In this document: positions 15,001 through 18,000 of the stretch, one piece after another
How the letters are laid out: each line of letters starts with the position of its first letter
Numbering within the stretch: position 1 is the first letter of the stretch
DNA from: a virus
Taxonomy: Duplodnaviria > Heunggongvirae > Uroviricota > Caudoviricetes
Reading direction: 5' to 3' (one strand)
Virus record (IMG/VR): IMGVR_UViG_3300029888_000014
Span: 1 to 30,633 of that record
DNA: 30,633 nucleotides
Position numbers: made by a program

Positions 15001-18000
15001 GTCAGTGGCACTCTGATGTTTTTCTCCACCCATGCCAGCGCCTTATCACGCTCAATGGCGTTAACCCGGTCGCATTTTTCCTTCGACAGCTTCATGCCAG
15101 GAATAACAGGCTTACCATCCACCCGGGTGGCTCCACGGCAGATGGTCCAGATCCCCGCACCATCACGGTATGCCGTGGTGTGGTTACCTTCCTTTTCATC
15201 CAGAAACTGGTCGAGAATGTCAGGCGCAGGCGCACCAGCGGCAATCAGCGCCAGAACGGCAGCCGACAGGCCGTATTTGATTTTGGTGTTCATGGATATT
15301 TATCAGGATTTATCGGTTTCTGCCCACGGACAGGTTTATCTGTTCCGGTCAGTGAATTAAGGTTGTGATTCCGGTGGAGTCTTCAGAGAACAAGTAATTA
15401 TTCCCGGTAGCTTTCCTTTGTAGGTTATCAACACATTCTGCGCCTCTAAAATTACGGGGCGCTTTTCCGGCAACGGTTCGTTCCCTTCACATAACCCGGC
15501 AGCAACATCCATGAAAAACTGCTTCGCCTGCTTTTTCGCCTCAGCTTCGTAAAACTCCAGCGTGGCACCTTCAGTACGGTCAAGACTAATCGCCACATCT
15601 GGCAACAACAGTGACGGATACCCACCAACTTCCAGTGCCACAGTAACAGTAATCTTATCCGGGTAATTATTTATCCCTTTAACAACCAGTTCGTATTTTT
15701 TCTTCATCGCTTTACTCTCCCCGCGCCGCCTTACGCCGGTCCTCTCTGATTTTGAAATACAGGTTAGTCAGGTACGTCAGCAGCCCAAACAGCAGACTCC
15801 CCAGCACGCCTATTGCCGCCCACTGAGACGGGGAAACCCTGTCCAGCAACTGCAGGAACCAGTAGCCCGTTCCCACCGCTGACGTGGTGTATGACACACC
15901 TGTTGTGATTTTTTCCATCTGGTACATACCCCGTCTCCCGTTATCCGGAAGCTCACAACAATATAAAGACCACCGGCACACACCGATGGTCCCTTGCGCA
16001 GGCTTACATCATCATGTCGCTGTCAGGTGTGGGTTCACCGCCATCTGAAGCACTCCCGTCACCCGCGATACCTTCCGGCTCCGGAACCGCTGGTACGCCC
16101 AGCAGCTCATCCAGAATGGCATCCACTTCTGCATCAAGACGCGACTCAAGGTTCTGGCGGAGTTTCTGTTTCAGTGCGCTCAGGACTTCTTCAGAGCGCA
16201 GGACTTCCTTCACTGCCTCAGCAGTGACCAGGGATGTGATTTCTGACATGGGATTTTCTCGTTGAAAGGTGTTGTCAAGAAAGTGACTACGGAATGAGCG
16301 GATCTTCGGGTTTGCTTCCGGCTGACTGACTGGCGCTGATTCTCTCAGCGGCCCTTTTATCAATCTGCCTGCGCCAGAAATCGCGCACTGCCCTGTACCC
16401 ACCCGAAAGAAGATACATAACACAGACTGCCATACAGAAGTACAGCATTACCTGATGAATAAATGTCATAATTTCTTACCGTTATGGTTGACAATGAGAA
16501 CTGTTTTCATTTAGAAATGATTGATGTCGAAAGCATCTTTTCTTTACATTCTCCATTGGGATTACCTCCGCCAGCTTCCATTCCTGCCGCTGGCGGCCTT
16601 TTTTTATCATGCCGCAGCATCCGCGTTGTTCACTTCCACCTTCACACTGTCAATCAGCAGCGTATATGTCGCCGCCTTTGATATGCCTGTCAGTTGCAGT
16701 TTGTCCGCCGCCCCTGATGCCGGAGATTTCACCAGTGTGAACGGCGTCCCCCGTTTCTCATCCAGTACCGGCGTCACCTGAATGCTGTTGTTTCCGGCAA
16801 ACTCAAAAGCCAGTGTGTGCCATCCGTTATCAAAGACCCCGAACGTATCCAGCTTCGCATTCGGCTTCTTGTGGTGCATCGCGTTCAGGTTCGTCGCATC
16901 CGTCTGCAGGAAGAAGGACATCAGCATGTCGTTGCCTTCCTCTGCCAGCGTCACTCCCTCCGGCAGGGACGACAACTGCCAGTAAATGCCCAGGGCAAAC
17001 TGATTCGGCACCAGTGAACCCGGCAACTTAAACCGTACGCTCACACGTCCCCCCTTCTTCAGTAACTCCACTCCCTGTCCGGCTGCATCATGCTCCAGAA
17101 ACCAGATGTGGTTTTCCGGTTTATTCAGTTGCAGGGCCTTACCTCCCGTAGCCCCCGCATCACTGACCACCGCTTCAGCAATGTTTTTGTTAACATTGTC
17201 TCCGCTCGCCGGTTTGTGATAATAGCGCCAGCCCTGTGATGCCAGGTCTTCGCCGGACGCCAGCAGACTCATCAGGGTTCGGTTACTGACCGGACCTTCC
17301 GGCTCTCTCTCCGTACCTTCACCGGAAGGTCCGGTGGGCTTCACCGTATCGGGCTGTTTTCCGGTAATGAATTCAGCGGTTCTCCCGGCATGCACAAGAA
17401 TCGCCGTTGCCAGACGGTCGGAAATAATCCCACGACGTGCCCATGATCCAAAATGCGTTTTACGGTCAGCCGTCGTCCAGGTTTTGGCGTCCGTTCGACC
17501 ACCGGCTCCGTAATACCCAATATCCGCAACATCCGGATCTTCTGACGGCTCGTTGGTACCCACATTTCGCCCGTTTTCATCCGTCATAAACGGCACAAAG
17601 AAGATTTTTTTTGCGGATTTCGTCTTATATGCACCATACACCGCATCGTATTGCGAAGAATAAGTCTGCTTCCAGTAGTAGGTCGTGTCGCCACAAATCC
17701 AGGGAACTGATGACGGAGAGCCCCCGAGACACTGACCTCCGAATTCCGACAGGTCAGAACGATATTTTTCCACCATGGAATCAAACAGCCCCGGCTGAGT
17801 GGCGTATGCACCCTGTTTCAAATCAAACTCGCCCTGCATCCAGACCACTGCAAGCAGAATATTTTTAGGGTTGGCCTTCAGTGCGGCCTGAGTACGGGTA
17901 AGCAGGTCCTTGTACAGTGGCTTATCTACACCCCAGCGTGCCGAGGTCTCGCTTGCGCCGGTGGATTCGCTGAAGGTACCTTCATCGCCCGCCAAAAATG

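Follow-up and report, generated by a model that had tools for sequence, protein, structure and literature searches.

An Esr41-related candidate small-RNA gene convergent with the nanS-p esterase gene of a lambdoid Escherichia coli prophage

In pathogenic Escherichia coli, prophage-borne small RNAs (sRNAs) such as Esr41, AsxR, AgvB, and StxS rewire host iron uptake, motility, and the expression of virulence genes. We analyzed a stretch of viral DNA of 30,633 nucleotides (nt) (IMG/VR record IMGVR_UViG_3300029888_000014, positions 1 to 30,633; here called the window), which is the late region of a lambdoid E. coli prophage transcribed on the minus strand. Between nanS-p, a gene for a sialate O-acetylesterase, and a DUF1378 gene, the window carries a promoter-terminator element on the opposite strand (positions 16488 to 16605, plus strand). 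As judged from homology, position, and conservation, this element is most likely a self-contained sRNA gene of the prophage, and most likely an allele of the sRNA slot between phage sialate esterase genes and DUF1378/holin genes that also houses PasA, PasC, EcOnc51, and EcOnc52. The kind of sRNA found at this slot is already known, and the window allele is probably an unnamed addition to a known prophage sRNA family.

Esr41, which binds Hfq, represses chuA at the ribosome-binding site and likewise represses cirA and bfr, with confirmation by compensatory mutations, and experiments have additionally shown effects on ler and fliC. In an Esr41 hybrid recovered by cross-linking, ligation, and sequencing of hybrids (CLASH), UUUUCUCC is paired with GGAGAAAA. 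PasA (NC_011601.1, 743499 to 743415, with a minor 236-nt form that ends at 743264) and PasC (1290909 to 1290832 of the same record) of enteropathogenic E. coli (EPEC) E2348/69 are Hfq-dependent, were validated by Northern blotting and by detection of RNA interactions through ligation and sequencing (RIL-seq), lie on the strand opposite their neighbors, and have EcOnc51 and EcOnc52 as their homologues in enterohemorrhagic E. coli (EHEC) (Pearl Mizrahi 2021, PMC8550237). The latter two were detected as peaks of Hfq cross-linking and analysis of cDNA (CRAC) in prophages Sp12 and Sp4, respectively, of EHEC Sakai (Tree 2014). The pasA and pasC genes were placed between the sialic acid esterase and holin/lysozyme genes (Zhu, Shabalina, and Storz 2026, bioRxiv 10.64898/2026.05.13.724894). 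In the RefSeq record, the SASA esterase genes beside PasA and PasC end at 743265 and 1290830 and are convergent with both; the end of PasC is two bases from the esterase stop codon, and the terminator in the window likewise lies within 1 to 2 nt of the corresponding codon.

For the window, the analysis shows the anatomy of the element, its conservation pattern, and its positional and sequence relation to validated sRNAs. As the preliminary description of this DNA had proposed, the plus strand carries a TTGACA hexamer at positions 16488 to 16493 and, at positions 16568 to 16605, an intrinsic terminator with a GC-rich 8-bp stem and a T7 tract that stops 1 nt short of the nanS-p stop codon. The stem arms, CCGCCAGC (16568 to 16575) and GCTGGCGG (16589 to 16596), form seven G-C pairs and one A-T pair around a 13-nt loop and are followed by CC, T7 (16599 to 16605), A16606, and the stop codon (TCA on the plus strand, 16607 to 16609). 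The weak TAGAAA-type -10 hexamer that had also been proposed is present at 16512 to 16517 and matches the consensus at four of six positions, but the 17-bp spacing given for it did not hold, since the spacer in front of TAGAAA (16494 to 16511) is 18 nt long; this -10 assignment is putative, and in an alternative reading the hexamer would be TTAGAA, 17 nt after TTGACA. The hairpin is unidirectional: in the minus-strand RNA, what comes after it is AGGUAAUCCC, with no U tract, and a test for a bidirectional intrinsic terminator, with a U tract on both strands, found T7 on the plus strand only. The terminator exceeds chance expectation: a strict scan (perfect stem of ≥7 bp with ≥5 G/C, loop of 3 to 15 nt, and T run of ≥6 within 3 nt) found two sites on both strands of the 30.6-kb window, whereas 200 first-order Markov simulations gave a mean of 0.02 such terminators and a maximum of 1. 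The spacer region (16493 to 16511, plus strand) forms an imperfect inverted repeat, AATGAGAA-CTG-TTTTCATT, that is complementary at seven of eight positions and mostly retained among Esr41-type alleles; it could be a candidate operator for some regulator, and no convincing match to a Fur box or a LexA box was seen in the spacer, as judged by eye only.

The 5' end of the RNA was placed 35 nt after the first T of TTGACA. This rule recovers the published 5' ends of PasA (CUGCCAUAUAG..., 85 nt) and PasC (78 nt versus the published 79 nt) and matches the 5' end of Esr41 in Rfam. Applied to the window, it predicts a start at G16523 and an RNA of 83 nt (16523 to 16605, plus strand) with the T7 tract as its 3' end, an allele of the Esr41/PasA/PasC family; this length fits the earlier suggestion of an 80- to 100-nt plus-strand RNA reaching from the TTGACA promoter to the terminator. 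Folding of positions 16523 to 16605 yielded a 5' hairpin, an open middle part, and the terminator (minimum free energy, -20.7 kcal/mol; z = -2.2). The predicted 5' stem-loop, GAUGU-CGAAA-GCAUC (16523 to 16537), appears in both the minimum free energy and centroid folds and is the counterpart of Esr41 stem 1 in the Rfam alignment. It is followed by a U-rich, mostly single-stranded region (16538 to 16567) of high unpaired probability, within which UUCUCCAU (16549 to 16556) is the putative seed; a TTCTCCAT-like core is found in most Esr41-type alleles. Two copies of the hexamer UCCAUU are present in the predicted RNA, one of them in the seed region (16552 to 16557) and the other in the terminator loop (16577 to 16582). 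This 13-nt loop is unusually conserved for a loop (identities over alleles of 0.77 to 0.80), and it is possible that it serves as a second interaction site.

Among named sRNAs, Esr41 is the closest relative in sequence. The global identity of the window RNA with Esr41 is 68%, compared with 57 to 58% for PasA and PasC, and blastn aligned it to Esr41 over a 28-nt stretch with 86% identity (E = 0.001). Rfam at gathering thresholds returned no match at the site; in a permissive scan, Esr41 (RF02676) was the sole model that aligned, and it did so over its full length (16530 to 16604, plus strand; 18.2 bits; E = 0.76). Full-length but weak Esr41 alignments in the same slot and on the same strand were also obtained for the allele of Sakai prophage Sp5 (28.1 bits) and for the slot locus L073 (24.1 bits). 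A covariance model, R1, built from twelve slot alleles with Esr41 and the window excluded, aligned to the window over its full length (16521 to 16604; 93.2 bits), and its best nonself match was full-length Esr41 (21.5 bits; E = 0.047, with rough calibration), followed by EcOnc52 (E = 0.11) and a second unit at the PasA locus (E = 0.51), both at the expected place and on the expected strand. The window element and Esr41 are each other's best weak full-length covariance-model match. The two share a TTGACA promoter whose first T precedes the 5' end by 35 nt, a 5' hairpin starting with GAUG, a single-stranded (U)UUCUCCAU core, and a terminator of the form CCGCC(A/G)GC...GCUGGCG with U7 followed by ATCA, and the fold predicted for the window has the described Esr41 architecture of a 5' hairpin, a single-stranded UUUUCUCC seed region, and a Rho-independent terminator with a U tail. 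The window RNA keeps the Esr41 seed core UUCUCC, two U residues shorter. They differ in that Esr41 is about 72 to 74 nt long instead of 83 nt, with a shorter linker and an unrelated terminator loop. The locations differ as well: Esr41 (EcOnc14) lies in the EHEC O157 island SpLE1 (O-island 43/48), downstream of iha, whereas the window element is part of a lambdoid late region, and the Esr41 flanks hold no remnant of an esterase gene, nanS-p, or DUF1378. At the Esr41 locus of Sakai SpLE1 (L005, 1513 to 1625), the terminator is followed by ATCA, the TCA of which is the esterase stop codon in the prophage slot; this gives a hint that Esr41 reached SpLE1 as a bare cassette. On these comparisons, the window element is a remote Esr41 relative that falls outside RF02676, and outside PasA and PasC, by their published criteria.

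With PasA and PasC, the element shares the slot, the strand, the convergence with a SASA esterase gene, and the position upstream of holin genes, and the gene order of the window (nanS-p, element, DUF1378, DUF826, holin) agrees with the location that defines these sRNAs. Common to the Pas loci, EcOnc52, and Esr41 are TTGACA, a poor A-rich -10 hexamer at 18 nt (CAGAAA in PasA and PasC and TATATA in Esr41, at the same distance), an RNA of about 65 to 85 nt, and a GCCAGC...GCUGGC hairpin with U7. In PasA and PasC, as predicted for the window, TTGACA precedes the 5' end by 35 nt, and the RNAs, of 85 and 79 nt, end in the same type of hairpin and U7 tract. The bodies differ, however, with 57 to 58% identity to the window RNA in a forced global alignment, and blastn with PasA or PasC as the query at word sizes 28, 11, and 7 found no match at the site; Zhu et al. 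define Pas genes by blastn similarity to PasA or PasC of E2348/69 with >75% query coverage, which leaves the window element outside. Furthermore, the reported seed of PasA overlaps its own terminator stem (GCCAGCACCU), whereas the core in the window is UUCUCC, and the PasA locus differs from the window in having two tandem units. In E2348/69 (L002, 2745 to 3050, minus strand), PasA is followed by a second promoter-terminator unit, EcOnc52-like and reaching to the esterase stop codon, an arrangement that would explain the minor 236-nt form of PasA. In the slot loci L077 to L081, an additional terminator-like hairpin lies just upstream of TTGACA.

In Sakai Sp4, the EcOnc52 Hfq-CRAC peak (1181998 to 1182075, minus strand) falls on the slot element at the 3' end of the esterase gene ECs_1088, on the strand opposite this gene. 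EcOnc52 resembles the window element in being a slot element opposite an esterase 3' end with a TTGACA promoter and a GCCAGCG...CGCTGGC terminator, but it is known solely as an Hfq-binding peak, and its body, predicted at about 65 nt, is of the PasA/PasC type and not of the Esr41 type. EcOnc10, EcOnc11, and EcOnc12 were considered as slot members and rejected; EcOnc12 sits downstream of Rz in Sp9, outside the slot. Prophage PP4 of E2348/69 has neither the esterase gene nor the slot. AsxR and AgvB are likewise short convergent sRNA genes of the lambdoid late region after PR', of a family whose 3' part is conserved and whose 5' part varies, but they occupy another slot, upstream of the esterase gene, are 51 to 60 nt long, and are unrelated in sequence. 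Their models (RF02703 and RF02702, with a conserved 3' region of about 42 nt) had no match in positions 16200 to 16900 at E values up to 10. AsxR and AgvB are sponges for host sRNAs, whereas nothing suggests a sponge role for the window element.

For the conservation analysis, DNA downstream of nanS-p relatives was collected from 80 viral contigs and from the Sakai and E2348/69 loci, which gave 46 distinct sequences. The promoter-terminator unit was present in every slot except the degenerate one of Sakai Sp9, in which TTGACA is lost and the terminator is weakened. TTGACA was in register in 44 of the 46 alleles and was the best-conserved element of the intergenic region, above the flanking coding DNA (mean identities to the window of 0.99 and 0.71 to 0.92, respectively). 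The terminator 3' arm had mean identities of 0.95 to 0.98, the U-rich linker and CATTCTCCAT core had 0.73 to 0.82, and stem-loop 1 and the preterminator parts had 0.60 to 0.67; the -10 position read T(A/T)A(A/G)AAA across alleles. Between the conserved promoter and terminator, the RNA bodies fall into about ten mutually unalignable types. In L007 to L009, the C-terminal 300 amino acids of nanS-p are 100% identical to those of the window and the 3' DNA is near identical, yet the body is wholly different (longer, at about 97 nt, and having a 10-bp terminator stem as well as a large loop), and further types on the same promoter and terminator were seen in L062, L070, L075/L086, and L079. These body differences between conserved ends suggest cassette-like exchange. 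In the Stx2 prophage Sp5 of Sakai (L006, 4004 to 5313), an IS629 insertion splits nanS-p near its 3' end and leaves the sRNA unit downstream of it intact.

The body replacements also bear on the idea that the plus-strand transcript encodes a small protein. An ATG at position 16524 opens a frame within a mechanically called open reading frame (16521 to 16781), but this frame crosses the terminator and has no stop codon before 16605, so that the terminated RNA would be a nonstop message, and neither the ATG nor the frame is kept in other alleles, in which the whole body is replaced or the indels are not multiples of three. A coding function is, in our opinion, extremely improbable.

Several observations weigh against the sRNA gene. 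The -10 hexamer TAGAAA is weak, lacking both the final T and an extended TG, and a generic consensus promoter scan missed the TTGACA/TAGAAA promoter because of the missing final T; the consensus scan gave only a shorter alternative, a 5-bp stem at 16584 to 16596 that shares the same T run. On consensus alone the promoter is weak; what speaks for it is its conservation, together with homologues for which 5' ends have been reported. Only 67% of the cells of the 5' hairpin pair across alleles, which is weak support, and in a covariation analysis this hairpin had one double change, no better than shuffled controls. The terminator stem was invariant, and since it never varies, covariation speaks neither for nor against an RNA structure. 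The Esr41 score of 18.2 bits is far from the gathering threshold of 102 bits, whereas true Esr41 scores 108.6 bits, and the R1 E values to Esr41 and EcOnc52 are borderline (0.047 to 0.5), with roughly calibrated statistics. Targets for the window RNA are extrapolated from a relative with 68% identity. Finally, none of the 63 Hfq-bound sRNA candidates listed by Tree et al. corresponds to the Sakai Sp5 allele, which shares 78% identity with the window RNA, and strings specific to this allele were found neither in the accessible portion of the CLASH supplements nor in the paper texts; Sy et al. (2020) do not mention the Sp5 slot region.

The weak, uncalled promoter and the lack of covariation would also fit a reading in which there is no RNA gene at all and the hairpin serves only to stabilize the 3' end of the nanS-p mRNA or to insulate the late operon against transcription coming in from the opposite side, with TTGACA being incidental; the minus-strand mRNA does form the same hairpin directly after its stop codon. 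The T tract, however, lies on the plus strand alone, which argues that the element is built to terminate plus-strand transcription, and TTGACA is kept in register at a fixed distance in 44 of the 46 alleles and exceeds neighboring coding DNA in conservation. In addition, homologous units at the same position yield discrete Hfq-dependent RNAs with 5' ends that fit such a promoter. The stabilizer-only alternative, which the preliminary description had left standing beside the sRNA, does not fit this pattern, and we consider it quite unlikely.

Of 5426 complete E. coli genomes, 975 contain the 141-nt element, which has 2194 occurrences among them and up to 7 copies per genome; at least 105 complete genomes carry it at ≥99% identity and 194 at ≥95%. 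It also occurs in 306 phage records, mostly of Shiga toxin (Stx)-converting phages, and in most Stx phages a close variant lies a few kilobases downstream of stx. A search of species-representative genomes with the nanS-p C terminus gave no confirmed relative, and the exact terminator pattern had 15 unrelated chance matches in distant taxa of the same set and none in Enterobacteriaceae. This distribution is relevant to the possibility that the window allele has true sRNA ancestry but is decaying or silent, either without useful expression or with its regulatory function lost. Besides the weak -10 hexamer, such decay would be consistent with the missing TTGACA of the Sp9 slot, with the designation of terminator-less PasA-3 variants as possible pseudogenes by Zhu et al., and with the absence of the Sp5 relative from the published Hfq-CRAC candidate lists. 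The Hfq-CRAC and CLASH screens, however, dropped peaks within 100 nt of annotated features, and the slot is only about 135 nt wide; the absence of the Sp5 allele is therefore weak negative evidence. Promoter, seed core, and terminator are all intact in the window, and near-identical copies are carried by many genomes; we therefore regard a silent allele as unlikely.

That the window allele is transcribed, expressed in the lysogen, and dependent on Hfq is inferred, as are its seed and its targets. As a trans-acting sRNA gene, the element would work as follows. Transcription would start near G16523 from a sigma-70 promoter whose -35 hexamer is perfect and whose -10 hexamer is weak, and the terminator abutting the convergent nanS-p stop codon would end it at about 16603 to 16605. 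The product of about 83 nt would comprise a short 5' hairpin, a U-rich single strand with UUCUCCAU, a GC-rich terminator hairpin, and a U7 tail. By analogy with other convergent prophage sRNAs, it may be expressed in the lysogen, independently of the Q-antiterminated late operon. Hfq would bind via the U tail and the U-rich region, a layout typical of Hfq-dependent trans-acting sRNAs. The anti-Shine-Dalgarno-like UUCUCC core could then pair with ribosome-binding regions of host mRNAs and cause repression, as Esr41 does with chuA, cirA, and bfr; because UUCUCC is kept accessible, and given the action of Esr41, pairing with host Shine-Dalgarno regions is the most likely mode of action. The RNA is, by construction, perfectly complementary to the nanS-p/DUF1378 late mRNA and could also pair with the late transcript during induction.

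That complementarity raises the alternative of a role in cis, in which the plus-strand RNA would act as antisense to the late polycistronic mRNA where nanS-p and DUF1378 meet. An 83-bp duplex could lead to RNase III cleavage or to altered expression of nanS-p or the lysis genes, or convergent transcription could damp late read-through in the lysogen. Such a role is compatible with a real RNA, differs from regulation of host mRNAs in the target alone, and could be an alternative or an addition to it. It would agree with the presence of the 3' ends of esterase mRNAs E2348C_0688 and E2348C_1246 among the RIL-seq targets of PasA in EPEC and with the position abutting the esterase stop codon, which is kept over about 46 alleles despite the exchanged body. 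Esr41, however, lies outside the slot and still acts in trans, the partners of PasA and PasC are mostly in trans, and a cis role alone would not explain the conserved UUCUCC-type single-stranded core. We therefore find cis action less convincing than pairing with host mRNAs and, overall, somewhat unlikely.

More broadly, the esterase-holin gap of lambdoid and Stx prophages might be a single, near-universal sRNA cassette site with a fixed TTGACA promoter, a fixed terminator next to the esterase stop codon, and a body swapped between them by recombination, a generalization that we put forward tentatively, as it falls slightly short of an even chance. If this is true, Esr41, PasA, PasC, EcOnc51, EcOnc52, the window allele, and several unnamed types would be allelic at a single locus, and each would provide the lysogen with a different seed. 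Zhu et al. (2026) suggested a loss of PasA or PasC from PasD-containing prophages and a scarcity of Pas genes among sequenced phages. This inference would then have to be revised, with the slot filled in about 300 phage records, mostly of Stx phages, by Esr41-type alleles that are invisible to BLAST with Pas queries. About one in five complete E. coli genomes has the element, often more than once, and it is unannotated in RefSeq and below the Rfam threshold; its recognition would enlarge the prophage sRNA repertoire by a widespread regulator that has no name yet and would link Esr41 to the PasA/PasC family. With their constant promoter and terminator scaffold, the slot alleles would also provide a natural set of seed variants for testing how horizontally acquired sRNAs gain targets. 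For the window itself, the gain is mainly one of annotation.

The late region surrounding the element contains, in order, three tRNAs (19071 to 19320), an STnc100 RNA, an AsxR copy, nanS-p, the element, DUF1378, DUF826, and a P21-type holin gene. STnc100 (18786 to 18994, minus strand; 131.7 bits) is a PR'-leader-type RNA related to PasD, and the AsxR copy ("anti-stx2 sRNA"; 18730 to 18782, plus strand), which is convergent with it, scores 63.0 bits, exactly the Rfam gathering threshold. The window contains no stx genes, including between AsxR/STnc100 and nanS-p. The nanS-p gene (16607 to 18577, minus strand) encodes a product with the Pfam domains DUF1737, SASA, and DUF6645, the homologues of which are named SASA family carbohydrate esterase in RefSeq; it belongs to the phage late operon and is convergent with the predicted sRNA. 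The DUF1378 gene (16287 to 16469, minus strand; Pfam DUF1378, 121.5 bits) is the next late gene downstream of the slot, with its start codon 19 nt from the -35 hexamer of the sRNA, and beyond it lie DUF826 and then the holin gene.

A region of 451 bp around the element matches strain EC931 with 100% identity and Stx phages, VT2-Sakai among them, with 83% identity. EC931 matches positions 15380 to 19035 at 99%, the remainder of the window is mosaic, and an IS66 insertion of EC931 is absent from the window. The second strong intrinsic terminator of the window (23217 to 23243, minus strand) lies near a match to the sok antitoxin RNA (23462 to 23636, minus strand; 110 bits), and the two probably belong to a hok/sok module that resembles the annotated hokD of EC931.

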